Positions 5,235-38,458 of a DNA stretch of 38,458 bases are shown here, piece by piece. The DNA lies in the sequence record OR683401.1; one strand, 5' to 3'. A program made the translations under genes and the position numbers. Position 1 is the stretch's first letter; each line of letters starts with the position of its first letter. This DNA comes from Pseudomonas phage Bise. A model generated the notes under the pieces. It saw nothing but the letters and a program-made list of their open reading frames with translations. It ran no database searches and was not told where the DNA came from.

Positions 5235-5240
5235 AGCGGC

Positions 5241-7003: not shown

Positions 7004-7036
7004 GCCGCCATGATGGCGGCGGCTCCCTGGTGAGGT

Positions 7037-9262: not shown

Positions 9263-9638
9263 GTCGTGGCTCCTTCATTGATAGCGTTTTCTTGAGGTCT
9301 TTCATCAGCTCGCGGATGCGCGCCAGGTTCTGTTCGCGCACTTCCGGCGAGATAGGGGGCGGTGGCAGTTGGCGCGGTGGCGCGCGGGCACCGAGGTTGT
9401 CCAGGTAGAGCTTCGGCGGCGGCCAGCGGTCGCAGATGCGGAACAGCACCAGGAAGGCCCGCTCCATGCGCTCGCGGTCGAGGTGTTCCTCCCACGCGCA
9501 GCCGTTGTTCCAGATCGCCTCCAGCCATACCTCGGCGGTGCCGACGATGGCGTCCTCCGGCGGCGTTCCAGCCAGGCGAAGGGCCAGCAGCTTCTGCAAG
9601 CCGGTGGCGATGACGACGCGGAACCAGTCAGGCACCAT
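9198..9638 (-). CDS. Hypothetical early protein (3' end overlaps the gam start by 65 nt; boundaries uncertain)
   Basis: 146 aa ORF, GC3-rich. Confidence 0.35.
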   Translation of the reverse strand: MVPDWFRVVIATGLQKLLALRLAGTPPEDAIVGTAEVWLEAIWNNGCAWEEHLDRERMERAFLVLFRICDRWPPPKLYLDNLGARAPPRQLPPPPISPEVREQNLARIRELMKDLKKTLSMKEPRHGNEEKGKGRAVGVPEQGTDD

Positions 9639-10113
9639 GCTTGAAACTCTCCAGCGCGGCGATGCCAGACAAGGTCTTGGACGAAGCCTTGGTGACGCCC
9701 AGGCGCGGCGCGCTATCGACCACCAGGTTGCTCACCGTGGGGCGGTAGTTGGCGATGACCTCGTAGAGCCAGCCGTGGCCCTTGAGGGGCGTCTTGAGCC
9801 GCCCGGCGTCGCGGGCGGCCAGCCCTTGTTCGATGGCCCACACCCAGGCTTCCTGGGGCGCTTCATAGACCTGGCCGTTGCGCGTGATGCGCCCGGCCTG
9901 GATGTCCGGCAGCACCTCGGCCAGCAGCTTGCCCACGCGCTCCATCGTCAGCTCGCGCGCCTCGGGGCGGAACAGCGCGAGGTAGCGCACCAGGGCAGCG
10001 CCGACCGTGCCGGAGAGCTTGAAGGCGGCGGCGAGGGCTTCGCGTGCGCCTTCGTGGGCGACCAGCGCGTCGAGCGAGAGCGTTGCGCCGCAGGACGGGC
10101 AGCGTGTCCTCAT
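9628..10113 (-). CDS. Hypothetical early protein with an N-terminal CPSC zinc-ribbon-like motif
   Basis: 161 aa ORF; 4-nt overlap with the upstream gene. Confidence 0.4.
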   Translation of the reverse strand: MRTRCPSCGATLSLDALVAHEGAREALAAAFKLSGTVGAALVRYLALFRPEARELTMERVGKLLAEVLPDIQAGRITRNGQVYEAPQEAWVWAIEQGLAARDAGRLKTPLKGHGWLYEVIANYRPTVSNLVVDSAPRLGVTKASSKTLSGIAALESFKHGA

Positions 10114-10460
10114 TGCACCTGCTCCTTCGCGCGCTGGACTTCCTTCCAGATCACGCGGATGCCCTGGTAGTGGATGGAGCAGAGGCGGCTCCCATCGGCC
10201 TGGGCTTCGGTGGTGCGGCCGCGCCCCAGCTCCAGCAGGGGCTGGAGCTGCTTCGTGGAGCCGGGCATGACCGTGATGGTCGGGCGGTCGGTCATGCCGG
10301 GGTGGAGCGACTCCTGCACCACGCTGTAGCCCATCGCGCGCAGCTCGCGCGCGACACGGTTGACCGCCTCCAGGCGGGAAACGAACTCCTCGGTGAACAC
10401 TCTGCTCATGACATGCTCCGTATGGGCGATGGGGCGGACGAGATGCAGGGGGGCGGCCAT
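10110..10460 (-). CDS. Hypothetical early protein
   Basis: ATG at 10458-10460 lies 2 nt after the B stop (translational coupling); the alternative start MSRVF would be at 10409. Confidence 0.35.
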   Translation of the reverse strand: MAAPLHLVRPIAHTEHVMSRVFTEEFVSRLEAVNRVARELRAMGYSVVQESLHPGMTDRPTITVMPGSTKQLQPLLELGRGRTTEAQADGSRLCSIHYQGIRVIWKEVQRAKEQVQ

Positions 10461-10461
10461 G

Positions 10462-11688
10462 TCACGCCTCCTTGACGATGTCGGCGTCAACCACCGGAGC
10501 GCCCAGGCTGGCGGCCACGTTCATGGCGGCGGTGAGCGCGTTGGCGACGGCCAGGGGATAGGCCAGGCTGACGTAGGTGGTGCCCAACTGGCCGGACTTG
10601 GTGTTGGCGGCCTTCTTGGAGAAGGTCAGGCGCTCGCGCAGCGCGGCGATGCCGTCGGGCGTGATGACCTTGGAGACGTCCAGACCGACGCGGGCCAGCT
10701 TGAACTTCAGGTAGTCGGCCAGGTAGCCGTCGAGCGGCGGCAGTTCGACGATGTCGCAACGCTGCGCGACTTCGCGGATGTCGGGGTCGTTCACCGACAG
10801 GCGCTTGCGCAGCTCGGGCTGCGCGATCATCACCACCGACAGCATGGGCGAGAGGCCGTCCTTGATCTCGGAAAACCGCTTGAGATGCTTCAGCGTTGCC
10901 TTGGGCAAGCAGTGCGCTTCTTCGATCAGCAGCAGGTGGCGCTGGCCCGCGCGGTGCCCGGCGGTGAGCAGCTTCTTGACCTGGCGGGCGCGGGCCTCCA
11001 GGTCGCGCGCGGGGGAGACGCCAGGCGCGACGGTGTCGATGATGGCCTGCACGATGGCTGCGCTCTTGAGCGTCTTGCCCTTGGCGTCGTTCTCCTCCAT
11101 GTAGAGCACCGAGGGTTCAATCACGACCAGGTCGCGGCCCTCGCGCAGCAGGCGCTCCTTGAAGTCATCGACCAGGGTGGACTTGCCGCTGCCGCTCTCG
11201 CCGACGATGGCGAGCATCCCGCCGTGCTTGGCGGTCTGCCAGAGCGTCTCGCGCACGAAGCGGATGTCCTGGTTGATGAACACGTCGCTGGCCTGCGTGA
11301 CGTCGTTCTTGAACGGGTCGGCGGTGAACTGGAAGTGCGCGCGGGCAGCAGGGGTCAGGGTTTGCTTTTGCAGGAGCATGTCGGTTTCCTTCTCGGCAGT
11401 TGATGAGGTCGCGCTGGACGTGGGCGCGGTGGTGGGGCGCTCTGCGGCGTCCTTCGGTTGTGCGGGTTGCATGGCGCGGTCGATTTGCGCGGTGTCGGCA
11501 CCGGCGCGGCGCAGCCGGTCGGTGATCTCGGCGCGCAGCTCGGCGGTGTTCTTCTTCGGCCATTTGCCGTGGTTGACCAGGTCGGCCAGGGTGCCCGGTG
11601 AAATGCCCAGGTCTCGCGCCAGGTGGGCCTGGCGGATGCCGAGCTTGTCGAGCAGCCGTTTGAGGGGCGTGGTGCGTGGAGAGGCCAT
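10462..11688 (-). CDS. MuB-like transposition ATPase (AAA+), with an N-terminal HTH
   Basis: 408 aa; Walker A GESGSGKST; immediately downstream of the transposase. Confidence 0.8.
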   Translation of the reverse strand: MASPRTTPLKRLLDKLGIRQAHLARDLGISPGTLADLVNHGKWPKKNTAELRAEITDRLRRAGADTAQIDRAMQPAQPKDAAERPTTAPTSSATSSTAEKETDMLLQKQTLTPAARAHFQFTADPFKNDVTQASDVFINQDIRFVRETLWQTAKHGGMLAIVGESGSGKSTLVDDFKERLLREGRDLVVIEPSVLYMEENDAKGKTLKSAAIVQAIIDTVAPGVSPARDLEARARQVKKLLTAGHRAGQRHLLLIEEAHCLPKATLKHLKRFSEIKDGLSPMLSVVMIAQPELRKRLSVNDPDIREVAQRCDIVELPPLDGYLADYLKFKLARVGLDVSKVITPDGIAALRERLTFSKKAANTKSGQLGTTYVSLAYPLAVANALTAAMNVAASLGAPVVDADIVKEA

Positions 11689-13517
11689 TACCGGAACCTC
11701 CGCAGCTCAACCACGCTGCCGCCGTGCGTGCCGGTAGCGGCCTGCGCGACGTTCCACTGGTCGGCCCATGCCTGCGGCACGTTGCCGTCCGGGAAGGCGG
11801 CCTTGACCTGGCTGTAGAGGTCGGCCGGGGCCGCGTCGCCGAGGCGTTCCTTGATGGCGCGCACGGCCTCGGGCACCGTGAGCATGATCTGCACCGATGC
11901 GGCCTTGCTCTGGAGCTGCTGCACCTGGGGCGTCTGCACTTCCCCGGCGTTGGGCACCAGGCGGCGAGGCAGGTCGGCCTGGCCGAGGTGGCTGTGCGCG
12001 ACCAAGCCCTTGCCATCGTTGAGGTGGCCGAAGGGGCGGGCTTGCTCGGCGCGCTTCTTCTCGGCCTCGTCCACCGTGGTGCCGTCGCCCCAGGCTGCGG
12101 CGGCCAGCGTGTTCGCCGCGCGCTCGCTGGCGGTCTGCGGGGCACGGGCGTATTCCTCGCCCGCGACCGGCGCGGACAGCGGCCGCCCGTATTCGTCGAA
12201 CCCGCGTTCCGGCTCCACCTGCATCAGCAGCGGCTCCGCGCCCATGCGGTCGATCTCGATGCGTAGCGCGCCCTGCTGCATCAGCAGCGGCGTGATGCGC
12301 ACCTTCTGGCCGTTGCCCAGGAACTCGGCCCAGGGGGTCAGGTCGTAGCTGGCCTTTCGCCCCAGCTCGGGGTGCGCGAAGGTGATGTGCAGGTTGCGCA
12401 CCACGCGGGTCAGCTCCTGGCCCGCCATGAACCACTGGCACACCTCGCGCGCGGGCATCTGCACCAGCGCGCCGGGGTGGCGCATGATGAGCTGCCAGAG
12501 GTCGTCGCGCACCATCGGCTGACCGCTGGCGCGCACCAGGCGGCAATCGACCTTCTCGATGGCGTTGGCGTTGAAGTCGCGCACCCAGCGCGCCGCCGAG
12601 GCGTTGAGCTGCTCGACGCTCTCCACTGGCTCAAAGCGCAGGCGGCTCTCGAAGTGGGTCTCCACCAGGTTGTTTCCCTGCTCGACGCCGCCCTTGCCCC
12701 AGGAATGGCCGGTGGCGTGCGTTTCGTGGTCAACGCCCAGGGCGTCGAGCAGGTTCTTGATGGCGAAGCTGGTGTTGGCGCTGCCTTTGTCCCACAGCAG
12801 CATCTTGGGCACGCCATGCGACATGCGGCCGGGCTGCTGGCCCCAGGTGTAGAGCAGGAACTCGAACAGGCTGTGCTGGTTCTCGCCAGCGGCCTCGAAG
12901 TAGCGCACGTCGATGGTGCCGCTGGCGTGGTCGTAGCGGACGTAGCGCCACACCTTGAGCCGCACCTTGTCCATGCTGGCGGGCTTGTTCTTGTAGAACT
13001 CCTCGTCGCGCATGATCGCCTGCCCTTTCGGCGTGTAATAGATGAGGCAGAGCGAGGGGTCGATCTGGTGCAGGTGGTTGGGGTGCAGGCTGCGCAGGGT
13101 GATGTGGTTGCGGGCGGCGGCCTGGGCCTTGGCGTCCATGCGGGCGGCGCGCAGCAGCGCGTTGACGCGGCCCTCGGAGACGGTCACGTCGATGCCGTTG
13201 GTGTGCGCGATGTTCATGGCCACCGCCGTAGGCAGCGTGGCCTTGCCGTTGCCACGGATGCCTTCGCGCTTGGCCGCCGCGATGAAGTGCAGCGTTTCCT
13301 TGGGCAGCGCCGTGGTGCCCGCGTCGGCGCGCTTCTTGCGGCCGGTGCGGTAGCCCGCGTAGTTGCGCAGCCAGGTATAGACGGTGGAGGGGTTCTTGCC
13401 GATGAGGCTGGCAAAGCGATGCACCAGCTCGGTCGCCGAACCATGCGGGGCCGCAGCGATGCGGTCGCGCAGGGCGAACAGCTCTTGCAGCAGGTCTGGA
13501 GCGAGTTGATGGGCCAT
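11688..13517 (-). CDS. MuA-like DDE transposase
   Basis: Likely start MAHQLAPD at 13515-13517 (ORF 11688..13817 has an implausible Pro/Ser/Arg-rich extension); about 610 aa Mu-transposase-like core. Confidence 0.8.
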   Translation of the reverse strand: MAHQLAPDLLQELFALRDRIAAAPHGSATELVHRFASLIGKNPSTVYTWLRNYAGYRTGRKKRADAGTTALPKETLHFIAAAKREGIRGNGKATLPTAVAMNIAHTNGIDVTVSEGRVNALLRAARMDAKAQAAARNHITLRSLHPNHLHQIDPSLCLIYYTPKGQAIMRDEEFYKNKPASMDKVRLKVWRYVRYDHASGTIDVRYFEAAGENQHSLFEFLLYTWGQQPGRMSHGVPKMLLWDKGSANTSFAIKNLLDALGVDHETHATGHSWGKGGVEQGNNLVETHFESRLRFEPVESVEQLNASAARWVRDFNANAIEKVDCRLVRASGQPMVRDDLWQLIMRHPGALVQMPAREVCQWFMAGQELTRVVRNLHITFAHPELGRKASYDLTPWAEFLGNGQKVRITPLLMQQGALRIEIDRMGAEPLLMQVEPERGFDEYGRPLSAPVAGEEYARAPQTASERAANTLAAAAWGDGTTVDEAEKKRAEQARPFGHLNDGKGLVAHSHLGQADLPRRLVPNAGEVQTPQVQQLQSKAASVQIMLTVPEAVRAIKERLGDAAPADLYSQVKAAFPDGNVPQAWADQWNVAQAATGTHGGSVVELRRFR

Positions 13518-13533
13518 GTCGAGTTCCTGCGCG

Positions 13534-14427
13534 TCAGGCCGCTTCTGGCGTGTATGCGCCCAGCGACTTGTCGAAGGTGGTGCGTTCCTTCTCCAGCCCG
13601 GCCTCGGCCCGCGAGAGCGCCTGCTCGTACACCTCGGCGATGTGGGCCAGCGCCGCGTCGTACTTCGGGCGTTGCTCATCCGGGACTTCCTGCGCGACCT
13701 CGAACAGCGTGATGCGGCAGGTTTCCAGCTCGCTGATGGCCTGGGCGAGCTTGCGACCGGCGGCGGCAACCTGCTCGGAGACTGGCTCCAACGCATCGGG
13801 CCAGTCCGTGTCGGCAACCACCTTCTTCTTGAGCTGCACCTGGAGGCTGGTGAGCTTCTTCTGCGTCTTGTCCAGCACGGCGTCCTTGGCTTCCAGGTCG
13901 CCTTGCAGGCTGCGGATGGCGTTCCGCAGTTCGCCCGCGCTCATGCGGTCGATGTCGTCGATGTCCTTCAGGTTCTCCAGCACGTCATCGTCGTGCGTGA
14001 CCAGCTCCAGGAAGGCGCTGGCGCTTTTCACCTGTGTGCTCAAAAGTGCCAAATTGGCAGATTTCGCCGTCTTGGCAGCAGCCTGCATGAAGCGCGCGGC
14101 CGACCTGTAGCTGAAGCCGAGGAACTCCACACGCTTCTCGAACTCGCCGTGCGGCGTCAGCTCGCGCAGCACCAGGAGCCGCTTGCCAAGCTCCAGCAGC
14201 GACTCGACAGTGCGGCGCTGGTAGAAGCGGATTTCGTCCTCCAGCGCGCCGATGGTCAACGTGCCTTCGTAGCCGATCTCGGTGGCGATGGCTTGCGCCG
14301 CAGCTTCCTGCTTGGTCTGCATGACCGCGAGCTGGTTGGCTGCGGCGACAGCGGTGGGCAAGCCCGGCAGGTCGGCGTCAGCGACGACCTCGGCGACAAC
14401 TGCGGTCTTGGTGGCGGTTCGGGCCAT
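13534..14427 (-). CDS. DUF3102-like coiled-coil early protein
   Basis: ATG at 14425-14427 preceded by AAGGAG; 297 aa, Ala/Glu/Leu-rich. Confidence 0.45.
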   Translation of the reverse strand: MARTATKTAVVAEVVADADLPGLPTAVAAANQLAVMQTKQEAAAQAIATEIGYEGTLTIGALEDEIRFYQRRTVESLLELGKRLLVLRELTPHGEFEKRVEFLGFSYRSAARFMQAAAKTAKSANLALLSTQVKSASAFLELVTHDDDVLENLKDIDDIDRMSAGELRNAIRSLQGDLEAKDAVLDKTQKKLTSLQVQLKKKVVADTDWPDALEPVSEQVAAAGRKLAQAISELETCRITLFEVAQEVPDEQRPKYDAALAHIAEVYEQALSRAEAGLEKERTTFDKSLGAYTPEAA

Positions 14428-14437
14428 GTTCTTCTCC

Positions 14438-14743
14438 TTAGTGGCTGGTGAGGCGTGACTGGATGTTCTCGATGCGCTCGCGGGCGGCGTCGAGGCTGCG
14501 AAGCACGGCCACGGCGTGGCGTGCGAACTGCACCGAGGGGCGGATGCGTCCGGTCTCCGGGATGCGTTCGGCAAAGCCCTTTTCTTCGAGCGTGGCGACG
14601 TAGCGGGTGATGGCGCTGGGGTCGAGGCCGGTGGCCTTCGACAGATCGGTGGGCGTGAGGCCGTGGGCGAAGTGGCCCAGCAGCGCGGCCAGAACGTCGA
14701 GCACCTTGGCTGCTGTCTGGCTGGTCTTGGTTGGCGTACTCAC
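14438..14743 (-). CDS. IclR-type winged-helix DNA-binding protein (stand-alone HTH)
   Basis: 101 aa; VLDVLAALLGHFAHGLTPTDLSKATGLDPSAITRYVATLEEKGFAERIPETGRIRP matches the IclR N-terminal HTH pattern. Confidence 0.45.
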   Translation of the reverse strand: MSTPTKTSQTAAKVLDVLAALLGHFAHGLTPTDLSKATGLDPSAITRYVATLEEKGFAERIPETGRIRPSVQFARHAVAVLRSLDAARERIENIQSRLTSH

Positions 14744-14786
14744 TGGTTGGGTTCTCCTGTGAAAATCATTTGCAGCGTGCGAAAAT

Positions 14787-14966
14787 TCAGGCGGCGGGTT
14801 TGAGGCCCAGCTTCACCGCGATTTCGTGGCCCTTGCCCCAGCGGGCTTTGCTCTGCCCGTTGAGAACCAGGTACACGTCGCGGCGGCTGTAGCCGTTTTC
14901 CTTTGCCCAGGCACTGAAGGTTTGGCCCTTGGCGCGGAATCGGGCCTTCACTTGTTCAGGGGTCAT
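14787..14966 (-). CDS. ner: Ner-like DNA-binding protein
   Basis: 59 aa (below the ORF-track cutoff): MTPEQVKARFRAKGQTFSAWAKENGYSRRDVYLVLNGQSKARWGKGHEIAVKLGLKPAA; Ner/Nlp-family pattern; first gene of the leftward early operon. Confidence 0.65.
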   Translation of the reverse strand: MTPEQVKARFRAKGQTFSAWAKENGYSRRDVYLVLNGQSKARWGKGHEIAVKLGLKPAA

Positions 14967-15036
14967 CGGCGGCGTCCTTGGTTACGAACTTGTTATGTAG
15001 ATTATATCTACTTTTATAGATTTGCAAGGAGGGCTT
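14967..15036. promoter_or_regulatory. Divergent c/ner switch region. AT-rich, with the perfect 13-bp palindrome TAGATTATATCTA (14998-15010) and a half-site repeat TATAGATTT (15014-15022)
   Basis: Only AT-rich stretch in the region; lies between the divergent starts of ner (14966, minus) and the repressor (15037, plus). Confidence 0.55.
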
Positions 15037-15468
15037 GTGGCCGACTTTGAAAAAATCCTGCTGCGCCTGAAAGAGCAGCTTGGTGTCTCGACAGACAAGG
15101 AAGCAGCAGAGCTGCTAGGGCTTTCCGACAAGGCGCTCAATGCCAGGAAGCGGCGCGGGGTGTTCCCCGAGGAGAAGCTGTGGGTGCTCTCGGCGAATCG
15201 CCCGGATGTAGATGCAATCTACATTTTGCGAGGCGTGAAGAAGGGCGAGGAGCACGCCACGCCAGCGGCGCAGTTGCTGCGCATGAAGGTGCTGGCCAGC
15301 CTGGTAGCCGACGAGCTGCACAAGCGCAAGGCCAGCCTGTCCGAGGTCAGCTTCCATGAGCTGCTTGACGAGCTGTGGCCGGAGTGGAGTGCTGATGCTT
15401 CGCCGGAACCAGCGGCGCTACGCGGGCGCATCGGGCACGCATTGAAGGTGCGAGGCATCAAGGGATGA
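15037..15468 (+). CDS. CI-type phage repressor (Phage_CI_repr HTH domain); probable GTG start
   Basis: Perfect SD CAAGGAGGG at 15025-15033 then GTG at 15037; ...DFEKILLRLKEQLGVSTDKEAAELLGLSDKALNARKRRGVFPEEKL... matches the CI-repressor HTH family. Confidence 0.7.
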   Translation: MADFEKILLRLKEQLGVSTDKEAAELLGLSDKALNARKRRGVFPEEKLWVLSANRPDVDAIYILRGVKKGEEHATPAAQLLRMKVLASLVADELHKRKASLSEVSFHELLDELWPEWSADASPEPAALRGRIGHALKVRGIKG

Positions 15469-30872: not shown

Positions 30873-31905
30873 CTTCGAGAAGCCCTCGCTGCTGCCGCCC
30901 GCGCTTGCGGTTGACCTGTCCATGCGGGCGCTGGAGGTGCTGATCGCGCGCCTGGTCGAACTCGACCTGGCTCCCACGCTGGTCTACGACTTTGAGCACG
31001 TCACCGAGTCGGCGCTGCCGCACCTGGGCGAGCAGTTCCACGTCATGGGTGCGGAGGGCTGGCGGCTGGCCACGACGCCGGAGCAACGGCGGGCGCTGCT
31101 GGCGCGAGCCGTGGCGCTGCACCGGCACAAGGGAACGCCGTGGAGCATCCGTGAGGCGCTCAAGTCGGTGGGCTTCAACGACCTGGAGATAGCGGAGCGC
31201 CTGCCGTCCAACCGCTACGACGGTGCAATCGCGTACAGCGGCGCGGAAGCCTACGCCGCCTACGGCTGGGCGCAGTTCCGCGTCATCGCCGACGCGGGCG
31301 ACGAACAGCCCATCACTTCAGCGCAGACCGCGCTCATCGTCGAGACCATCAACGCATGGAAACCCGCGCGCAGCCACCTGGTGGATGTGCGCTACCGCGC
31401 CAGCGAGACCGAGCAGGTGGACGTAGCCGAGGTCGAGCAGCACCAGGGCGTCATGACCCATGACGACCAGCACCGATGGGGAAAGCACTTTTATGACGGC
31501 GCGCTGGCCTACGACCAGGGCGCTACCCACCTCTGGAACGGTGCGCTGCGCTTCAACGGCGCGGCCCTGCACAACGGTTTCTCGGCCACGGCCGAGGGTG
31601 CCCGCTACGAAGGCGAACGCGAGGAAGAAAGCCTGGAAGCCACGCTCGGCTTCTTCGACCAGCAGACGCGCTGCCCGGTGTTCGCGGGCGAGCTGGACTA
31701 CAGCGGCGTGGCCGACTTCGGGGCATCGGCTCCGGTGGCGGAGGACTTGCCCATGCCCATCACGTTGCGCCGCCACCGGCGCTTCGACGGCCGCCTGGCC
31801 TACAGCGCCCACCGTTTCGACGGTTCGCAGCGGTACGCCGGGCAATTCACCCACTTCGGCAACTCGGCGTACAGCGGCGACGTTGTCACCCTGTTGGAGG
31901 CGTAA
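30865..31905 (+). CDS. P2 gpI-like tail protein
   Basis: 346 aa after J; Phage_tail_I-like N-terminus. Confidence 0.65.
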   Translation: MADFEKPSLLPPALAVDLSMRALEVLIARLVELDLAPTLVYDFEHVTESALPHLGEQFHVMGAEGWRLATTPEQRRALLARAVALHRHKGTPWSIREALKSVGFNDLEIAERLPSNRYDGAIAYSGAEAYAAYGWAQFRVIADAGDEQPITSAQTALIVETINAWKPARSHLVDVRYRASETEQVDVAEVEQHQGVMTHDDQHRWGKHFYDGALAYDQGATHLWNGALRFNGAALHNGFSATAEGARYEGEREEESLEATLGFFDQQTRCPVFAGELDYSGVADFGASAPVAEDLPMPITLRRHRRFDGRLAYSAHRFDGSQRYAGQFTHFGNSAYSGDVVTLLEA

Positions 31906-32348
31906 TGGAAATAAAGATCAAGGAAGGCGTTCCGCTGGCCGGGCACTTCCACGTTGACCTGTATCGGGCCGGTGTCCTGGTCGCGGTCATCGACGAGGAA
32001 AACCTCATCGTCAACGGTGCCAAGAACCAGCTCGCCCGCCTGATCGGCGGCGCGGGCGCGAACCGGCACATCACGCAGATCGGTTTCGGCATTGGCCAGG
32101 CCGCCGCCGCGCCGGGCCAGACGGCGCTGACCTCGCCCTACATCAAGGCCATCGGCAGCGTGGAGTACCCGGCGACCGGCCAGGTGCGCTTCAACTGGAG
32201 CCTGTCCACGGCCGAGCTGAACGGCGTGGCCATCACCGAGTTCGGGCTGATCTGCGCGGACGGCACGTTGTTCTCGCGCAAGCAGCGCAAACCCATCGAG
32301 AAGGAGTCCGACCTGTCGCTGACCGGCTCCTGGACGATTCTTTTCTAA
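31905..32348 (+). CDS. Hypothetical tail protein (possible fibre accessory)
   Basis: 147 aa; start overlaps the I stop. Confidence 0.4.
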   Translation: MEIKIKEGVPLAGHFHVDLYRAGVLVAVIDEENLIVNGAKNQLARLIGGAGANRHITQIGFGIGQAAAAPGQTALTSPYIKAIGSVEYPATGQVRFNWSLSTAELNGVAITEFGLICADGTLFSRKQRKPIEKESDLSLTGSWTILF

Positions 32349-32358: not shown

Positions 32359-33288
32359 ATGGCAAACGTGACTGAAACCCCGACCTGGGAAGGCGGTGTC
32401 TACCAGATCGAAACCACCGACCCCGTGCTGGGCGGCCCCAATGGCATCGCCAACGTGCAGGCCAAGCAGCTCGCCAACCGCACCACGTACCTAAAGGCCC
32501 GCGCCGACCAGGTCGATGCGGCCAAGGGCAACCATGCCAGCCTGACCGCGCGCATGACCGCCATCGAGGCGGCCACCGAGGCGCTCGGGCCGGACGCCCA
32601 GGACGCATCCCTGGCCGCCATCAAGTTCGCCATCGACCAGGCGAATTTGGCCAACCAGGGCGTGCGTGGGCTGCACCAGTTCGCGCAGCAGGAAGGCGTG
32701 CTGACGATCAGCAACCGGGGCGTGGTCAGCGGCTGCACGGTGAGCAAGTCCACCACGGCCGCGCGCAACCTGCACATCTCGACCGGCACCTGCTTTGCCC
32801 AGGGGCGCAAGTTCGCGGTGGCAGACGGCAACAACGCTGCCTCGGTGCCCAGCAACACCGGCTCGGGGGCCGTGACCGTGTTCGCCTACCTGTTCCAGGA
32901 CGCCAGCGGCCTGTGGCGGCTGGCCGTGACGTCCATCGGCCAGGCCGTGCCGGACGGCTGCATCCGCCTCTACAACCTTACGGTGCCCGCCAACTCGACG
33001 GACGCCACCGACCCCAACTTGGCGGCCGTCACGCTCACCGATGTGCGCCGCGTCGAGGCCGGGTTCCCGATCTTGCTGGACAACCCCGCCTCGGCGTCGC
33101 CGCAGCTCGCGGCGCTGCCGGATTCGGCCTACCACGTCACCTTCGACGTGCTCTCGGCCAACGGCGCGCCCGCCGAGGCCAAGAGCCTGGTGGTGGCCAG
33201 CCGTGCCAGCAACGGCTTCACCGTGCGGCTGGCCGCCGCCGCCGACAACGTGGTGGCCCGCTGGCGGGTGAGCCGCCTCAATGCCTAA
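32359..33288 (+). CDS. Tail fibre protein
   Basis: 309 aa; N-terminal ...GGVYQIETTDPVLGGPNGIANVQAKQLANRTTYLK is the conserved baseplate-attachment motif of phage tail fibres. Confidence 0.65.
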   Translation: MANVTETPTWEGGVYQIETTDPVLGGPNGIANVQAKQLANRTTYLKARADQVDAAKGNHASLTARMTAIEAATEALGPDAQDASLAAIKFAIDQANLANQGVRGLHQFAQQEGVLTISNRGVVSGCTVSKSTTAARNLHISTGTCFAQGRKFAVADGNNAASVPSNTGSGAVTVFAYLFQDASGLWRLAVTSIGQAVPDGCIRLYNLTVPANSTDATDPNLAAVTLTDVRRVEAGFPILLDNPASASPQLAALPDSAYHVTFDVLSANGAPAEAKSLVVASRASNGFTVRLAAAADNVVARWRVSRLNA

Positions 33289-33309: not shown

Positions 33310-33630
33310 ATGCCGCAAATCATCTTGAAGCAGCCGAGCCAGAACTCGGCCGACTTCTCCGTCAACGGTGCCGTCATCACGGTGGCCGGTGTCACCGTCA
33401 ACTGCGAGGCCCGCGAGGAGGACGTCGCGCAGATCATCGAAATCCGCCAGCACGATGGCGTGGCCCAGGAGGGCGGCGAAGGCGCGTTCCTGGCGCAGAT
33501 CGAAATCCCGGCCCGCCGCTACGTGGACGAGGAAGGCCCGCTCGGCGAGGACGAGCAGCCGACCATCGTGCGCAGCCCCGTGCCGTTCGACCCCAACCGC
33601 GTCGCGCTGACGTTGTGGCCCACCAACTGA
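33310..33630 (+). CDS. Hypothetical protein upstream of the DGR target
   Basis: 106 aa; RBS AAGGAGA. Confidence 0.4.
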   Translation: MPQIILKQPSQNSADFSVNGAVITVAGVTVNCEAREEDVAQIIEIRQHDGVAQEGGEGAFLAQIEIPARRYVDEEGPLGEDEQPTIVRSPVPFDPNRVALTLWPTN

Positions 33631-33646: not shown

Positions 33647-34741
33647 ATGACTATCTTCATCAAAGACGACCTGCGCGCGAGCGTGGAAGCGGCCACGGGC
33701 GGCCTTGTCACCGTGCTCTACACGGCGGCCGGGCATCCGAGCTACATGAACGTGATCCCCAAGTTCAACTTGCAGGACATCGACCCGGCGCTGGGCACCG
33801 GGGTGCATCCGGCTTTCATCGTCAACGGCGTGGAAAAGAGCGAGCTGTTCATCGGCCAGCATGTCGGCTGCGTCAAGGACAGCAACCTGCTGTCCTTCCC
33901 CGGCGCGGTGCCGCAGGTCAGCGCGAACTTCGACACCTTCAGGACGTGGGCGGCGAACAACGGCCCCGGCTGGCACATCATGACCAACGCCGAATGGGCG
34001 GCCATCGCCCTCTGGTGCTGGAAGAACGGCACGATGCCGCGCGGCAACAACAACTGGGGCCGTGATGTCGGCTCGACGTGGGAGACGGCCCGCCGTGTTG
34101 ATGGTGGCGCGCCTGGTGATGCCACGGGCAACGGCCGCCACTACACCGGCTCCGGCCCCGCCTCCTGGCGGCACAACGGCCAGGCCAACGGCATTGCCGA
34201 CCTGAATGGCAACGTGTGGGAGTGGTCGGGTGGCCTGCGCCTCAACGATGGCGAAATCCAGGTGCTGGCCAACAACGACGCCGCCGACAACACGAAAGAC
34301 CAGAGCAGCACCTCGACGCTCTGGAAGGCCATCAAGGCGTCGGATGGCTCGCTGGTTGCGCCGGGTACGGCGGGCACTTTGAAGTACGACGCGACGGGTG
34401 CCAACGGCACTGGAGGCAACGTGCTGTCCGACACCGTGACCAGCCGCTCTGGCAACGTGGGCGAGAACGACAACGTCAACGGCACCGGCCAGGCGTTCGA
34501 GAGCATGACTGTGAAGGCGGGGCTGACGGTGCCCGCCATCGCCAAGGTGTTGTGCTTGTATCCGCCTGTGGCGGGCCTGGGCGGCGATAACTTCTGGATG
34601 CGCAACCACGGCGAACGTCTGCCTCTGGCCGGTGGCAGCTATAACAATGGTGCCTCGGCTGGGGTGTTCGCGCGCGATCTCGCTAATGCACGAGCGAGTG
34701 TTAGCGGAAGCGTCGGCGCTCGCCCGGCCTATGTTCTTTGA
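33647..34741 (+). CDS. DGR variable target protein (Mtd-like receptor-binding protein; C-terminal FGE-sulfatase / C-type-lectin fold)
   Basis: 364 aa; GNVWEWSGG and NNWGRD motifs of the FGE/CLec fold; the last about 41 codons are the VR. Confidence 0.8.
   Translation: MTIFIKDDLRASVEAATGGLVTVLYTAAGHPSYMNVIPKFNLQDIDPALGTGVHPAFIVNGVEKSELFIGQHVGCVKDSNLLSFPGAVPQVSANFDTFRTWAANNGPGWHIMTNAEWAAIALWCWKNGTMPRGNNNWGRDVGSTWETARRVDGGAPGDATGNGRHYTGSGPASWRHNGQANGIADLNGNVWEWSGGLRLNDGEIQVLANNDAADNTKDQSSTSTLWKAIKASDGSLVAPGTAGTLKYDATGANGTGGNVLSDTVTSRSGNVGENDNVNGTGQAFESMTVKAGLTVPAIAKVLCLYPPVAGLGGDNFWMRNHGERLPLAGGSYNNGASAGVFARDLANARASVSGSVGARPAYVL
34615..34738 (+). repeat. DGR variable repeat (VR), 124 bp, at the 3' end of the target gene
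   Basis: Near-identical to TR 35329-35452; all 9 differences fall at TR adenines. Confidence 0.85.
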
Positions 34742-34791
34742 AAGGGGGTGCGGTAGCACCCACCAGCAGCGCAACAGCATGTGATGGGTCT

Positions 34792-34824
34792 CCCGGTCGC
34801 GTTAGCGACCGGGCGATTTTTTTT
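34792..34824 (+). other. GC-rich hairpin with 4-nt loop (CCCGGTCGC-GTTA-GCGACCGGG) followed by T8; DGR target-recognition hairpin and/or terminator
   Basis: About 54 bp downstream of the VR; 9-bp stem. Confidence 0.55.
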
Positions 34825-34880
34825 CAGGGGGTGGTGCGATAAAATCGCAAGCGGATTTTGATTGGGGAGGCGGGGCTGGA

Positions 34881-35294
34881 ATGGCGGTAGATCGGGAAGC
34901 GCAACTGGTGCGCAAGTTCGTGGAGTTCTCGAAGCTCCTCAATGTGTACCTAAACCACTTTCCCCGCCACGAACGCTACGCCCTCTCGAACCGAATCCGA
35001 AACGCCGCCTATGACGTCTACGACTTGATCGTGGAAGGTCAGAAGCGGTACCACAAGAAGACGTCCCTCACGCAGCTTGACATTGCCCATGAGCAATTGC
35101 GGATGCAGTTGTTTCTGGCCTATGAAATGGGCTATTTCAAGTTCACGGACGGACGCACCGAAGGGAACGCGGTAGAAGTAGAAGCGAAACGCTGGCAGGC
35201 GATCAGCAAGCTGGTGGATGAGCTGGGCCGCATGATCGGAGGTTGGATACGGCACGAGCTGGCCGAATCGAAAGAGGCAGGCCAGCAGAAATGA
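34881..35294 (+). CDS. avd: DGR accessory variability determinant (Avd), four-helix-bundle protein
   Basis: 137 aa basic helical protein; similarity pattern to BPP-1 Avd; sits between target and TR. Confidence 0.75.
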   Translation: MAVDREAQLVRKFVEFSKLLNVYLNHFPRHERYALSNRIRNAAYDVYDLIVEGQKRYHKKTSLTQLDIAHEQLRMQLFLAYEMGYFKFTDGRTEGNAVEVEAKRWQAISKLVDELGRMIGGWIRHELAESKEAGQQK

Positions 35295-35328
35295 CCAGTC
35301 CGTTGTGGTTTAAGGGCGGCCTACGATC

Positions 35329-35452
35329 ACGTCTGCCTCTGGCCGGTGGCAACTATAACAATGGTGCCTCGGCTGGGGTGTTCGCGCGCAATCTCAATAA
35401 TGCACGAACGAATGTTAACGGAAACGTCGGCGCTCGCCCGGACTGCGGCTTC
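35329..35452 (+). repeat. DGR template repeat (TR), 124 bp
   Basis: Invariant donor copy; 9 AAY (Asn) codons in the VR reading frame; followed by a diverged IMH*-like region. Confidence 0.85.
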
Positions 35453-35605
35453 TTCCTCAAACCTCGAATGGGGATAGTGGAGCCATAGGGATAGGTCGTC
35501 CTGCTTGCCCGCGTAGCGGGCAGCGAACTCGTAGTCACTCCGCGCTTTTTGGTAGGGTTCGGCCCGAAGACCAGCGCGGAGTTTTTTTTGGGGTATGGAG
35601 GGGCA
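35453..35605 (+). ncRNA. DGR spacer region between TR and RT with nested hairpins (35499-35518; 10-bp stem 35537-35546/35573-35582 followed by T8)
   Basis: Non-coding 153 nt with strong secondary-structure potential; analogous to the Sp region of the BPP-1 DGR RNA. Confidence 0.45.
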
Positions 35606-36637
35606 ATGAAGCGGCACGGGAACCTGTTTGAGCAGACCTTCACCCGCGAGGCGCTGTACGACGCCTACGTGGAGGCCAGGCGCGGTAAGCGCCTGCGCAA
35701 GGCGTGCTTCTGGTTCGACATCCGCGCCGGTGCCGTGCTGGACTGGCTGCACCGCCGCCTGCACGATGGCAGCTATGAGATTCGCGGCTACAAGCGGTTC
35801 CTGGTGCATGAACCCAAGACCCGCGAAATCTGCGCGCCGTGGTTCGGCGACATCGTGGTACAGCACGCCATCTACTCGGTCATCAGGCCGATCTTCGAGC
35901 GTGTATTCATCGACCAGTCCTTCGCCTGCCGACTCGGCAAGGGTACACACAAGGCTTCCGAGTACGCGATGGCGGCGCTGCGCCAGAGCCGCCCCGACAG
36001 CTACACCCTCAAGCTCGACATCAGGAAATTCTTTTACCGCATCGACCGGGGCATCCTGCGCAAGCTCATCGAGCGCAAGATCAAGGACAAGCGCCTGGTG
36101 GACATGATGATGAAGTTCGCCGAGCTGCCCGAGCCGCTGGGCATCCCCATCGGCAACCTGCTCTCGCAGGTCTATGCGCTGATCTACCTCAACGCCCTCG
36201 ACCACTTCGTCAAGCGCGAACTGAAGGTGAAGCTCTACTGCCGGTACGTGGACGACTTCATCCTGTTCGACCTCGACCGGGAACAGTGCCTGGAATACAA
36301 GGCGCGCATCGAAGCGTTCCTGCACAACGAGCTGCACCTGGAGCTGTCGAAGTGGACGATGGCCAAGACCAAGCGCGGGGTGAACTTCGTGGGCTACCGC
36401 ACCTGGCGGCGGGCCAAGTTCATCCGCAAATACAGCCTGTTCAAGTTCCGGCGGGCGGCCAAGCGGGGGAAGACGGACAGCGTCATATCGCTGCTGGGCC
36501 ACGCCAAGCACTCGCACTCGCTTGGGTTCATGTGGCGCACCATCCGCGAGGTCAATCCCGACCTGGTGCGCAAGCTGCCGCCGAAGGTGAGGCGCTTCTA
36601 CCCGGCCAGGCCGAGCGCGCCGCCGCAGCAAAACTAA
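35606..36637 (+). CDS. DGR reverse transcriptase
   Basis: Start MKRHGNLFEQ with RBS GGAGG; motifs IGNLLSQ and YVDD typical of DGR RTs. Confidence 0.9.
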   Translation: MKRHGNLFEQTFTREALYDAYVEARRGKRLRKACFWFDIRAGAVLDWLHRRLHDGSYEIRGYKRFLVHEPKTREICAPWFGDIVVQHAIYSVIRPIFERVFIDQSFACRLGKGTHKASEYAMAALRQSRPDSYTLKLDIRKFFYRIDRGILRKLIERKIKDKRLVDMMMKFAELPEPLGIPIGNLLSQVYALIYLNALDHFVKRELKVKLYCRYVDDFILFDLDREQCLEYKARIEAFLHNELHLELSKWTMAKTKRGVNFVGYRTWRRAKFIRKYSLFKFRRAAKRGKTDSVISLLGHAKHSHSLGFMWRTIREVNPDLVRKLPPKVRRFYPARPSAPPQQN

Positions 36638-36648: not shown

Positions 36649-36840
36649 GGCGGTGCGTGGGGGAAAGCCGGATGCTATCGGCTGAAAAGGACGGGCGACC
36701 CCACCCGGTGCTGGAACACCGGACGGAACCCCAATCAAGCAGACAAGCCTGCAAGACCGGCCAAGGCCCGCCACCTGGTACCAGGCGGTTCTTAGCCTAT
36801 CAGAATCTGCAAATGGTTTGCAGAAAAGGGCTTGTTCGCT

Positions 36841-37044
36841 ATGACGGAGATTCGTTGCGCCGCTTGCTCCCGCAAGCTGGGAGAGGGTGAGTTCACCCGC
36901 CTTGTCATCAAGTGCCCGCGTTGCCGGGCGCTCAACACCTTGAAGGCCGAGAGCCTCCCGCCAGAACGCCACCGAGCGTCCAGCTCCGAAAGGTTGCCCG
37001 ATGGAAGGCTCCATGATCGCGGAGGCGCAATCCCGCCTCGATGA
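36841..37044 (+). CDS. com: Com-like zinc-finger translational activator
   Basis: 67 aa; MTEIRCAACSRKL...IKCPRCRALN CxxC...CxxC as in Mu Com; overlaps the start of the downstream modification gene. Confidence 0.6.
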   Translation: MTEIRCAACSRKLGEGEFTRLVIKCPRCRALNTLKAESLPPERHRASSSERLPDGRLHDRGGAIPPR

Positions 37045-37825
37045 CGTCCAGGCCGTGCCGCTTGTCCCCTGGGTGGGTGGCAAGCGCCGCCTGGCCCCGC
37101 ATATTCTCCCGCTGCTGCCAGCGCATACCTGCTACGTCGAACCGTTCGCGGGCGCGGCTGGCTTGTTCTTCTCCAAGCCGCCCAGCAAGGTCGAGGTGCT
37201 CAACGATGTGAACGGCGACCTGGTCTGCCTGTACCGCGTGGTGCAGCATCACCTGGACGAGTTCATGCGGCAGTTCCGCTGGTCGCTCACCAGCCGCCAG
37301 ATGTACGCCTGGCTGCGGGAAACGAGGCCAGACACCCTTACGGACATCCAGCGGGCGGCGCGCTTCTTCTACCTCCAGAAACTCGCCTTCGGCGGCAAGG
37401 TGGACGGCCAGACCTACGGCACGTCCACCACGGCCCCGATGCGCCTGAACCTGCTGCGGCTGGAGGAGGACTTGAGCGCGGCCCACCTGCGGCTGCACCA
37501 GGTCAACATCGAGAACCTGGACTGGCACGCCTGCATCACGCGCTACGACCGCAAGCACACCCTGTTCTTCTGCGACCCGCCGTACTACGGCACCGAGGGC
37601 TACGGCGTCGAGTTCGGCCTGGAGCAGTACGACCGCATGGCCGAGCTGCTGCGCACGATGAAGGGCAAGGCGGCCGTCACTGTGAACGACATCCCGGCCA
37701 TGCGTCAGGCGTTCAAGGGGCTGGCCATGAAAAGCCTGGCCATCCGCTACACGCTCGGCAAGGCCGGGGCCGGTCGGCAAGAGCGCGGCGAGCTGCTGGT
37801 GATGAACTACGAGCCGGGCGGTTGA
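37001..37825 (+). CDS. N6-adenine DNA methyltransferase, Dam / D12 class (in the mom position)
   Basis: Motif I EPFAGAAGLF near the N-terminus and motif IV DPPY (FFCDPPYYGTEGYG); start may be at 37013. Confidence 0.8.
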   Translation: MEGSMIAEAQSRLDDVQAVPLVPWVGGKRRLAPHILPLLPAHTCYVEPFAGAAGLFFSKPPSKVEVLNDVNGDLVCLYRVVQHHLDEFMRQFRWSLTSRQMYAWLRETRPDTLTDIQRAARFFYLQKLAFGGKVDGQTYGTSTTAPMRLNLLRLEEDLSAAHLRLHQVNIENLDWHACITRYDRKHTLFFCDPPYYGTEGYGVEFGLEQYDRMAELLRTMKGKAAVTVNDIPAMRQAFKGLAMKSLAIRYTLGKAGAGRQERGELLVMNYEPGG

Positions 37826-38076: not shown

Positions 38077-38303
38077 TGACGCCCATCGAACAGAGCCTGA
38101 CCGACTACCTCGGCGGCTACACCCGCAACAACCCCGCCAGCCGGGCGCACGTCATGAGCTACCCGGACTGGCAGCAGATGGCCAGGCTGGAGCTTGATCG
38201 CCGCGCAGCCAGCCTGCTGTCGGTGCTGCCGGACGAGGAACTCCGGGCCATCGCCGAGGGCCAGGTCAGCCTGCCCGAGTTGGCCAGGAACCTGCCCACC
38301 TGA
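38073..38303 (+). CDS. Small hypothetical protein (right-end cargo), translationally coupled to the previous gene (ATGA)
   Basis: 76 aa ORF. Confidence 0.35.
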   Translation: MMTPIEQSLTDYLGGYTRNNPASRAHVMSYPDWQQMARLELDRRAASLLSVLPDEELRAIAEGQVSLPELARNLPT

Positions 38304-38324
38304 TCATCTCCCACCCGGAACGAA

Positions 38325-38358
38325 GAAGGCCGCCCATGAGGCGGCCTTCTCGTTTGTG
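38325..38358 (+). terminator. Rho-independent terminator GAAGGCCGCC-CATGA-GGCGGCCTTC followed by TCGTTTGTG
   Basis: 10-bp perfect stem after the last gene. Confidence 0.6.
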
Positions 38359-38372
38359 CGCGCTGGGCGCTT

Positions 38373-38456
38373 CTGCAATTCTCTTTCAACCTTTGGCGCT
38401 CCACCGGAGGGGCGTTTATCGCGGCTCCGAGGCCGCAGTTATCGCGGCGCGCTTCA
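38373..38456. mobile_element. Mu-like right end: terminal ...GCGGCGCGCTTCA-3' with repeated TTATCGCGG (38417-38424, 38440-38448) transposase-binding-like sites
   Basis: Terminal 13 nt resemble the Mu terminus (GCGCCGCTTCA); repeats in the last 60 bp. Confidence 0.6.
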
Positions 38457-38458
38457 TG

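Follow-up and report, generated by a model that had tools for sequence, protein, structure and literature searches.

Layout of the Locus

The window, i.e., the whole 38,458-nt stretch of DNA that was analysed, contains within positions 33647–36637 all the canonical parts of a diversity-generating retroelement (DGR). The order of the parts is: target gene with VR at its 3′ end, IMH-like block and hairpin, avd, TR, spacer, and reverse transcriptase (RT) gene. This is the BPP-1-like order, target-VR/avd/TR/RT, of the initial annotation, and all of the parts listed there were found, with coordinates exact or off by a base or two. Pfam and PHROGs matches place the cassette downstream of baseplate and tail-fibre genes on the same strand. 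The genes and repeats are as follows.

32359–33288, + strand: tail-fibre protein, 309 aa (PHROGs phrog_3100, phrog_4209)
33310–33630, + strand: 106-aa ORF, function unassigned (phrog_8734, E = 5e-13)
33647–34741, + strand: DGR target gene, 364 aa, TaqVP-like variable protein
34615–34730, + strand: VR, 116 nt, 92% identical to TR
34881–35294, + strand: avd, accessory variability determinant, 137 aa, four-helix-bundle family
35329–35444, + strand: TR, 116 nt, identical in five prophage copies
35606–36637, + strand: DGR RT, 343 aa (ATG at 35606, stop at 36637)

The element that carries the cassette is a genuine Mu-like transposable phage; phage genes and element ends bear out the prophage setting that had been proposed. 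The transposase matches phrog_310 (E = 1e-68), and a Pfam search of this protein gave zero matches. Also present are phrog_296 (DNA transposition protein; MuB-like ATPase), Mu Gam (phrog_491), a late activator (phrog_532), and Pfam matches to Phage_Mu_F and Zn_ribbon_Com. The element ends are 5′-TG...CA-3′: the window opens with TG, and homology among copies stops at ...TTCA (38456). The flanks past 38456 differ in every copy, indicating different insertion sites. The GC content is 66%, the chromosome is proteobacterial, and the closest relative is in a Burkholderiaceae MAG.

The VR-TR Repeat Pair

VR and TR are direct repeats at an offset of 714. The pair had been annotated as 124 bp long; the repeats exist, but their ungapped core is 116 nt. 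In the 8 nt upstream of the core only 4 of 8 positions match, and the mismatches lack adenine specificity. TR does lie downstream of avd as the second copy, starting 34 nt, rather than the annotated 35 bp, past the avd stop codon. A search of the whole window found no additional VR-like copy.

VR corresponds to the last 41 residues of the target, with codons 324–362 in frame in the 364-codon ORF. All nine VR/TR mismatches are at TR adenines. With adenine at just 25 of 116 TR positions, random placement of the mismatches would produce this 9/9 outcome with P = 2.7e-7. Codon positions 1 or 2 hold 21 of the 25 adenines, and nine TR codons are AAY. No stop codon is reachable from TR by A-mutagenesis. 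Twelve TR codons are able to change amino acid, which gives ~2.5e12 variants.

The Target Protein and Its Role

The target aligns with PDB 5vf4 over residues 3–364 (E = 8e-103), and the VR regions line up at the C-terminus. PDB 5VF4 is TaqVP, a solved C-type-lectin DGR variable protein (PMC6328139). The target also matches phrog_2889 (E = 1e-139); Pfam and NCBIfam searches gave zero matches, including to Pfam FGE-sulfatase. On the basis of the alignment, the target is predicted to have an FGE-type C-type-lectin fold with the variable residues on a C-terminal ligand-binding surface. Phages ACA1, VHML, and Lagaffe encode homologs that carry the annotation antireceptor or Mtd-like.

In the 309-aa protein, the matches to the two tail fiber families (phrog_3100, phrog_4209) are confined to residues 1–100. 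This protein is the N-terminal fibre/baseplate-attachment part, encoded apart from the variable protein, and its gene is conserved beside the cassette in close relatives. The 106-aa ORF sits between the fibre gene and the target, has a GC3 of 0.92, and accompanies the cassette in 12 related loci.

Gene position and homology, with BPP-1 as the model, suggest that the target binds a receptor and that its diversification would switch tropism. The target lies directly 3′ of the baseplate J, Tail_P2_I, and tail-fibre genes on the same strand; homologs in VHML-type, ACA, and Faecalibacterium phages have the equivalent position and the antireceptor or Mtd-like annotation; and BPP-1 Mtd, from a cassette of identical order, is an experimentally shown receptor-binding protein. 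These points argue against a different outcome, in which the DGR is active but the target is not a receptor-binding protein and tropism does not switch. The target might then be, e.g., a protein made by the lysogen for its surface or for adhesion, or a structural protein outside host recognition. We consider this unlikely, but it has several points in its favor. The evidence for receptor binding consists of gene position and homolog annotations. The closest homolog with a solved structure, TaqVP, is monomeric, consists of a single domain, and has no demonstrated ligand (PMC6328139). Upstream of the target there are a separate 309-aa fibre protein and the 106-aa ORF of unassigned function, and the ACA1/ACA2 paper raises open questions on its homologous antireceptor.

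Diversification in Prophage Copies and Related Loci

The decisive comparison is of five independent assemblies of one prophage, 99.6–100% identical over 6.85 kb. The five share a single TR sequence, each has a VR of its own, and the target ORF is intact in every one. Between copies, 23 of the 116 VR columns vary, 21 at TR adenines and 2 at TR thymines; outside VR, 10 columns vary over about 6,730 nt. That is, the density of variable sites is 0.20 per nt in VR versus ~0.0015 per nt elsewhere. The VR polymorphism anticipated by the initial annotation is seen: copies with identical TR have VRs that differ almost only at TR-adenine positions. In the 92 related loci, mismatches occupy 1400 of 2489 TR-adenine sites (56%) versus 66 of 8130 other sites (0.8%), and each VR tracks its own TR at non-adenine positions.

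These differences among the copies show that diversification has occurred in this lineage. It is very improbable that the cassette is a relic, decayed or silent, whose VR/TR mismatches would record past activity. A single genome gives only a static VR/TR pair, and the Avd score is slightly under the NCBIfam equivalog cutoff; against this, the ORFs for RT, Avd, and target are all intact, the catalytic YVDD is present, and five near-identical copies (≤24 differences in 6.85 kb) share one TR and carry five VRs. Since the near-identical copies all have different VRs, diversification postdates almost all other divergence between them.

Avd and Reverse Transcriptase

The small Avd gene of the initial annotation is confirmed by its score against Pfam bAvd PF22296, 54.5 bits (cutoff 40). 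The score against the NCBIfam equivalog DivGenRetAVD, 74.7 bits, is just under the cutoff of 80, and phrog_3206, “Avd protein of DGR”, is matched with E = 4e-22. All 92 related loci have an Avd homolog between VR and TR.

The 343-aa RT is as had been described and contains both IGNLLSQ (residue 182) and YVDD (residue 214). The [I/L/V]GxxxSQ motif is known as DGR-specific. A GGAGG Shine-Dalgarno sequence is found upstream of the gene. The RT matches Pfam RVT_1 and phrog_1423 (E = 1e-91), and it is closest to the solved BPP-1 DGR RT: bRT (PDB 8ub7) scores 184 bits (E = 4.5e-53, residues 2–294), versus ≤71 bits (E about 1e-18 or weaker) for group II intron RTs and ≤51 bits for retron-type RTs. 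In a tblastn comparison with BPP-1 brt, identity is 38% across 90% of the query. The NCBIfam group II, retron, Abi, and DRT RT models are all far under cutoff. Judged by match scores, grouping of this RT with the DGR RTs is supported, in agreement with the annotated class.

It is hardly credible that the RT is from another class (a group II intron, retron, or Abi RT, or a defence RT of the DRT type) and the repeat an unrelated duplication. Among the NCBIfam models the highest score, 108 bits, is that of the model for group II intron RTs, and many PADLOC DRT models score 40–87 bits; weak cross-matches of this kind are expected because RT domains are all homologous, and these are far under curated cutoffs (108 versus 300, 59 versus 200). 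The match to the BPP-1 DGR RT reaches 184 bits across the entire protein, which also has the DGR-type IGNLLSQ motif. Intron RNA, a maturase/endonuclease domain, and retron ncRNA are absent, the Rfam search is empty, and a simple duplication cannot explain adenine-only mismatches plus Avd.

The IMH-like Block and the Hairpins Downstream of VR

The 3′ end of VR and the DNA just beyond it contain three further features.

34711–34741, + strand: IMH-like VR end, a GC-rich block common to VR and TR, then divergence
34746–34761, + strand: target-site hairpin/cruciform, GGGTGC-GGTA-GCACCC, 6-bp GC-rich stem and GRNA-type tetraloop
34792–34823, + strand: intrinsic-terminator-like hairpin and T-run downstream of the target gene

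An adenine-free, GC-rich 17-nt block, CGTCGGCGCTCGCCCGG, is identical in VR (34711–34727) and TR (35425–35441). Past the shared block, VR reads CCTATGTTC... and TR reads ACTGCGGCT...; the block and both divergent tails are kept in relatives. By analogy with BPP-1, the block and the divergent sequence past it would set directionality, with IMH at VR and IMH* at TR (PMC3240598).

The target-site hairpin begins 15 nt past VR and 4 nt past the stop codon. With a dG of −8 kcal/mol and z = −1.3, it is weak when taken alone. Among 68 distinct related loci, 51 have a GNNA-loop hairpin 3′ of VR, versus 12–21% of control windows, and the loops are mostly GATA or GGTA. The published rule for phage DGRs is a GC-rich stem with a 5′-GRNA tetraloop, 4–34 bp downstream of VR (PMC3240598). 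The hairpin here fits in stem, loop, and distance; its stem is 6 bp perfect (8/9 with one mismatch), compared with 7–10 bp reported for other phage DGRs (PMC3240598). The terminator-like hairpin has a 9-bp stem with 8 GC pairs followed by T8, and its DNA fold has z = −3.9.

The Spacer RNA

Between TR and the RT gene lies a structured spacer, one strand of which pairs upstream of TR.

35313–35323, + strand: upstream duplex strand AGGGCGGCCTA, in the avd-TR intergenic gap
35445–35605, + strand: spacer (Sp-like) of the DGR RNA, 161 nt, structured
35445–35484, + strand: stem-loop region directly 3′ of TR, from the spacer alignment/fold
35479–35484, + strand: GGAGCC, pairing with GGCTTC at 35447–35452
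35485, + strand: conserved adenosine, candidate priming site
35492–35502, + strand: spacer duplex strand
35503–35524, + strand: spacer hairpin, then GAA at 35525–35527
35539–35546/35573–35580, + strand: covarying 3′ helix around the conserved TTTTTGGTAG...CGAAGACCA blocks
35581–35588, + strand: T8 tract

Covariation was assessed in an alignment of 63 spacers, with a consensus fold and compensatory changes. In this fold 90% of cells are paired, versus 37–52% with slid partners, and the covariation score is 0.50 versus ~0.12 in controls. Covariation support for the primer-proximal helix is moderate only. The segment 35313–35323 pairs with 35492–35502 at 11 of 11 positions, 2 of which are G-U. 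Across 63 loci with 30 distinct spacer strands, a spacer strand forms 12.5 of 13 pairs with its own upstream region versus 9.8 of 13 with those from other loci. A duplex between avd and Sp, “cPRT Stop”, is described for BPP-1 (bioRxiv 10.1101/2023.10.23.563531), and the long-range duplex here is, by analogy, its counterpart. The spacer RNA elements agree with this BPP-1 RNP structure paper, and the BPP-1 spacer has TTCCTCAA...GTGG...GTCCTGCTTCGGCGAAC in common. The individual elements may, by the same analogy, carry the BPP-1 functions.

In this subfamily, the 3′ helix (taken here as 35538–35546/35573–35581) is followed directly by the T8 tract and then by the RT Shine-Dalgarno sequence and the RT start codon. 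In distant relatives, the RT start codon is inside or adjoins the 3′ strand of the equivalent helix. A speculative proposal, to which we give a low probability, is that the RT-binding-type 3′ RNA helix doubles as a cis regulator, either as a terminator/attenuator or by occluding translation. If so, 3′-end formation of the DGR RNA would be coupled to RT synthesis, perhaps with autoregulation through RT–Avd binding, and mutagenesis would be limited in a phage that amplifies by replicative transposition.

Relationship to Known DGRs

The prototype BPP-1 DGR, mtd-avd-TR-brt, has equal gene order and a spacer of about 140–160 nt. Its Avd is from the same Pfam family, and the RTs are 38% identical over 90% of length. 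Also alike are the C-type-lectin-type target, the GC-rich IMH-like block ending VR, and the post-VR GRNA-loop hairpin. In both, the spacer RNA pairs over a long range with sequence upstream of TR and has a short hairpin with unpaired adenosines as well as a 3′ helix. The differences are as follows. The phage type is not that of BPP-1: the element here is Mu-like, transposable, and of myovirus type, with a tail sheath. In place of the trimeric three-domain Mtd, the target gene encodes a 364-aa, TaqVP-like protein of one domain, and TR is 116 nt versus 134 nt in BPP-1. The upstream strand of the duplex is in the 34-nt avd-TR gap, whereas that of BPP-1 is inside avd. Unlike BPP-1, the subfamily here has a T8 tract after the 3′ helix, just before the RT start.

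The Thermus aquaticus prophage DGR (TaqVP, PDB 5VF4) has equal cassette order (PMC6328139); its target aligns in full length, with VR at the extreme C-terminus in both. The host phylum and the prophage are different. TaqVP has 9 variable residues and ~3e9 variants (PMC6328139), compared with 12 changeable codons and ~2.5e12 variants here.

Vibrio phage VHML and Pseudoalteromonas phages ACA1/ACA2 encode homologous targets with 35–39% identity over full length and RTs of about 35% identity, in equal order after the tail-fibre genes. The N-terminal fibre part is a separate polypeptide there as well. Unlike the element here, these phages are not transposable, and they differ also in the RT start, which here is at 35606, after the T-tract and Shine-Dalgarno sequence.

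DGRs on transposable phages are known. Toussaint 2013, which we cite as referenced in PMC5883640, deals with DGRs of Firmicutes Mu-like phages. In the Bacteroides hankyphage, a DGR occurs together with a Mu-like transposase, and the insertion sites are random (PMC6199706). Bacillus phage BalMu-1, like the element here, has an FGE/CLec-type target (35% identical), Avd, and RT (40% identical) after the tail genes near the right genome end. In all of these, as here, the DGR is on a transposable phage. The earlier Mu-like DGR phages have Firmicutes or Bacteroides hosts, compared with a 66% GC proteobacterium here, and they differ also in that a com-dam module follows the DGR here. The left 15 kb here is oriented opposite to that of Mu. 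The novelty attributed to the element in the initial annotation was overstated: DGRs located after tail genes in Mu-like or transposable phages had already been described. The element is a new member only, since the DGRs of Mu-like phages are already published (Toussaint 2013, BalMu-1, hankyphage). It is a clean textbook case of a system known from similar phages and no new element type.

Proposed Mechanism

Very probably, the cassette is a canonical, currently active BPP-1-type DGR in a Mu-like transposable prophage. The mechanism we propose, by analogy, is RT–Avd-dependent synthesis of adenine-mutagenised cDNA followed by retrohoming. The avd-TR-spacer region would be transcribed. The RNA would fold through the long-range duplex (35313–35323 with 35492–35502), a hairpin followed by unpaired adenosines, and the 3′ RT-binding-type helix, so as to place the TR 3′ end inside the RT–Avd complex. 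Synthesis may be self-primed from a spacer adenosine, as in BPP-1, with 35485 as the candidate. RT would make a cDNA copy of TR that is accurate at G, C, and U, with random incorporation opposite adenines. Through integration steps modelled on BPP-1, this cDNA would take the place of VR in the target gene's 3′ end; the GC-rich IMH block, together with the GRNA-loop hairpin immediately 3′ of VR, would give directionality. TR would stay unaltered throughout. The outcome would be up to ~2.5e12 variants of the C-terminal ligand-binding surface of the TaqVP-like C-type-lectin protein. The gene for this protein closes the tail-fibre cluster at its distal end, and diversification of the protein most likely alters the choice of host receptor.

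Significance

The element leaves knowledge of DGR workings or distribution unchanged, and it adds a well-documented natural case of an active DGR. Five sequenced prophage copies have one template and five receptor-tip sequences, each at its own chromosomal insertion site. The TaqVP/VHML-type cassette is extended to a Mu-like phage of a high-GC proteobacterium. Family-wide covariation supports the view that the BPP-1 RT–Avd–RNA architecture is common to a large group of proteobacterial phage DGRs. The RNA elements with this support are the duplex between upstream region and spacer, the hairpin with adenosines after it, and the 3′ helix.

Gene Parts and the VR/TR Pair

The DGR extends from 33647 to 36637. 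Its target gene, avd, TR, and RT were all recovered as the initial annotation had described them, by ORF listing and repeat finding. The parts are as follows.

33647–34741, plus strand: target ORF, 364 aa (ORF listing)
34615–34730, plus strand: VR, 116-nt core inside the 3′ end of the target (repeat finder)
34746–34761, plus strand: target-site hairpin, GGGTGC-GGTA-GCACCC, four bases 3′ of the target stop codon
34792–34823, plus strand: strong terminator, next after the target-site hairpin
34881–35294, plus strand: avd ORF, 137 aa (ORF listing)
35329–35444, plus strand: TR, 116-nt core between avd and RT (repeat finder)
35606–36637, plus strand: RT, 343 aa from the internal ATG at 35606 of a longer ORF

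A single long direct repeat, 34615–34730 versus 35329–35444 at 92% identity, was returned by the repeat finder, and there is no third VR/TR copy within the window. The repeat had been put at 124 bp. The pair is confirmed, at a shorter length: the core is 116 nt, and the other 8 flanking bases match at 4 of 8 positions. Base-by-base comparison of the core finds nine mismatches, and the downstream copy has A at all nine. Because only 25 of the 116 TR bases are adenines, random placement of the mismatches would give this result with a probability of 2.7e-7. Read in the target frame, TR contains nine AAY (Asn) codons, and 21 of its 25 adenines lie at codon position 1 or 2. Mutagenesis of TR adenines cannot reach a stop codon, and about 2.5e12 protein variants are reachable through them.

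Protein Identities

The RT belongs to the DGR class, not to the group II intron, retron, or Abi RTs. It matches the BPP-1 DGR RT structure (PDB 8ub7) over residues 2–294 with E=4.5e-53, versus E=1e-18 for the best group II intron RT and 1e-12 for the best retron-type RT. It is 38% identical to brt of the BPP-1 genome, and the IGNLLSQ and YVDD motifs noted in the initial annotation are both present. Its scores against the NCBIfam group II, retron, Abi, and DRT RT models are all far under the cutoffs. PADLOC is non-discriminating here, returning a generic RT call along with many DRT cross-hits.

Avd scores above the Pfam bAvd cutoff and slightly under that of the NCBIfam Avd equivalog model, and it matches the PHROG 'Avd protein of DGR'. 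The target protein has no Pfam or NCBIfam family; its homology comes from PDB and PHROGs only. The alignment with PDB 5vf4 spans the full length (E=8e-103). This is the structure of TaqVP, the DGR variable protein of a Thermus aquaticus prophage; the protein has an FGE-type C-type-lectin fold, with the variable region right at the C-terminus (PMC6328139). Judging from gene position and homology, the target would act in receptor binding and tropism switching.

VR Diversification among Copies and Relatives

At least 23 contigs encode an RT protein identical to that of the window. One locus, on the 6.28-Mb chromosome CP115295.1, matches the window at 100% identity, and four further loci in separate assemblies match it at 99.6–99.8% across 6.85 kb. 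TR is exactly the same in these five copies, and VR is different in all five. VR polymorphism at TR-adenine positions had been anticipated, and it was found: of the 116 VR columns, 23 vary, 21 where TR has an adenine and 2 where it has a thymine. Outside VR, the five copies show 10 variable columns in ~6,730 nt. The target ORF is open in every copy, and the encoded tips differ by at most 12 residues. A silent relic is ruled out by five differing VRs alongside one unchanged TR.

The two non-adenine positions are 34665 and 34684, with T to C in L166 and T to G in L169 (L-numbers denote loci found by the RT search in other assemblies). These changes could be occasional RT errors or ordinary mutations. 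L166 also has 8 substitutions within 131 nt (31869–32000), where the Tail_P2_I gene meets a 147-aa ORF, in an otherwise near-identical 6.85 kb; the cluster looks like a small recombination patch.

RT-based scans recovered 160 loci, of which 92 had an RT of ≥52% identity together with sufficient flanking DNA. All 92 have the same cassette, with a VR/TR pair of ~115 nt each and Avd between VR and TR in 92/92. Across this set, mismatches fall at 1400 of 2489 TR-adenine positions (56%) versus 66 of 8130 other positions (0.8%). Non-adenine TR positions vary by lineage, and each VR matches its own TR there. This tracking is the signature of repeated TR-to-VR information transfer. In L163, a 93% relative (4439–4554 versus 5154–5269, reverse-complemented), a VR codon TAT fits the window TR codon AAT better than its own AAC, which suggests a T-to-C drift of the L163 TR itself since homing last occurred.

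Besides the identical copies, the nearest relative lies in a Burkholderiaceae MAG, at 92% nucleotide identity. A metagenome scan for the TR 3′ end found two loci, both ~93% relatives, and an exact-pattern scan of IMG/VR for it gave no match. When the cassette DNA was compared with phage genomes, the Dam gene was the sole match. Psychrobacter sp. 72-O-c has three loci of this DGR family, L015 and L029 (NZ_CAJHBI010000012.1) and L032 (NZ_CAJHBI010000009.1). Two of them share a contig at a distance of ~35 kb, with RTs equally identical (54%) to the window RT; a DGR-bearing transposable prophage in several copies would give this pattern.

Cis Elements at the VR and TR Ends

A 17-nt adenine-free, GC-rich block is common to the 3′ ends of VR (34711–34727) and TR (35425–35441). 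The two sequences part ways 3′ of this block, like IMH, the initiation-of-mutagenic-homing element at the VR end, and IMH*, its TR counterpart. The hairpin at 34746–34761 conforms to the phage DGR target-site rule of a GC-rich stem with a 5′-GRNA tetraloop 4–34 bp after VR (PMC3240598). Taken alone this hairpin is weak (z=-1.3). Among 68 distinct related loci, 51 have a GNNA-loop hairpin 3′ of VR, versus 12–21% of control windows; this count uses a tolerant rule with controls, a perfect-stem filter having under-counted at 18/68. The G-run 5′ of the hairpin (34744–34748) is G5 in the window and CP115295.1 and G6 in the other four copies.

Spacer RNA

The TR–RT spacer is 161 nt here versus 144 nt in BPP-1, with sequence blocks common to both. 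In an alignment of 63 spacers, with the TR ends of loci defined by BLAST, the helix 35539–35546/35573–35580 shows compensatory changes at six of its eight pairs, in 21–26 sequences each. For the whole proposed RNA structure, 90% of cells are paired versus 37–52% with slid partners, and the covariation score is 0.50 versus ~0.12 in controls.

The conserved block GGGA...TCC (35492–35502) pairs with 35313–35323, immediately 5′ of TR. With 30 distinct spacer strands, complementarity averages 12.5/13 within a locus versus 9.8/13 with other loci. This long-range duplex, which covaries strongly, is preferred to the local hairpin proposed by RNAalifold (35489–35501), in which one of five pairs has a compensatory change. 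A hairpin (35503–35524) and then GAA follow 3′ of the duplex. In the BPP-1 RT-Avd-RNA structure, the 'cPRT Stop' consists of an avd:Sp duplex, a short stem-loop, and A-minor adenosines (bioRxiv 10.1101/2023.10.23.563531), an arrangement reproduced here by the duplex, hairpin, and GAA. Adenosine 35485 is A in 60 of 63 spacers. The three bases 5′ of it covary with the bases at +3 to +5 downstream of TR, which suggests, with moderate support, a template–primer helix; by analogy, priming would be from this adenosine.

Directly 3′ of the covarying spacer helix is T8 (35581–35588), then GGAGG and the RT ATG (35538–35606 in all). The nearest relatives keep the T-tract; in distant ones the RT start codon is in or beside the 3′ strand of the helix. 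Helix and T8 could form a terminator or attenuator, or a translational control of RT.

The Mu-like Element around the Cassette

The whole window amounts to a single, complete Mu-like element and coincides almost exactly with one transposable-phage genome. The proposed Mu-like context is borne out by a transposase, a MuB-like ATPase, Gam, Mu F, and Com. Also encoded are a late activator, terminase, portal, head protease, major head protein, sheath, tape measure, and baseplate proteins. The landmarks are as follows.

11688–13817, minus strand: transposase, 708 aa (PHROG phrog_310, E=1e-68)
15022–15468, plus strand: CI-like repressor; the minus-strand genes diverge from it and from the plus-strand head and tail genes
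36832–37044: Com-type zinc-ribbon gene, overlapping the Dam gene start by 44 nt
37001–37825: Dam-family N6-adenine methyltransferase gene

The first two bases of the window are TG, and at the other end homology to every other copy and relative breaks off at ...GCTTCA (38456). Past 38456 each assembly has different flanks and hence a different insertion site. Just within the right end (38300–38458) are two GCCGCGATAA repeats, candidate transposase-binding sites. The transposase has no Pfam match at E<0.001, neither rve nor Mu-transposase domains. Among phage records, Pseudomonas phage Komp_PAO1_1 comes closest to it, at only 42% identity, and the enzyme appears to be a divergent one of the MuA type.

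The DGR lies after the baseplate J, Tail_P2_I, and tail-fibre genes and before the com-dam module. The com-dam pair occupies the position of com-mom in Mu, with a Dam enzyme instead, and is so annotated in Pseudomonas phage B3. Within 620–15468, every early and packaging gene runs on the minus strand: Ner-like HTH, transposase, MuB-like ATPase, Gam, late activator, small and large terminase, portal, and Mu F. This left-part gene order is unlike that of Mu. The inverted left 15 kb might be read as an assembly artefact or as two prophages. That reading was dropped, as a leftward terminase-portal-MuF block is found in Curvibacter phage TJ1 too, and the whole 38.46-kb unit recurs as ~38.3–38.6 kb contigs in other assemblies. 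In TJ1 only the lysis-terminase-portal-MuF block is leftward, whereas here all early genes are leftward too.

Rfam at gathering thresholds gave no match anywhere in the window. ARAGORN called a 93-nt tRNA-Val(GAC) at 14104–14196 (minus strand) within a high-GC3 coding region, probably a false positive since Rfam finds no tRNA there.

Place among Known DGRs

The cassette belongs to the DGR family, and within it to the BPP-1/TaqVP/VHML type, and has all the defining features that can be tested in silico. A DGR in a Mu-like phage had been presented as far from the BPP-1 paradigm, but Mu-like or transposable phages with DGRs have been documented before, so the finding is sound yet not new in kind. 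Toussaint reportedly described such DGRs in 2013, in a paper that PMC5883640 cites. The hankyphage combines a Mu-like transposase with a DGR (PMC6199706), and Bacillus phage BalMu-1 has an FGE/CLec-type target, Avd, and RT at the same position as here. Homologous antireceptor DGRs have been described in VHML and phages ACA1/ACA2. The cassette thus adds to the known DGRs, and its value lies in clean evidence of natural variation and in family-wide RNA covariation.
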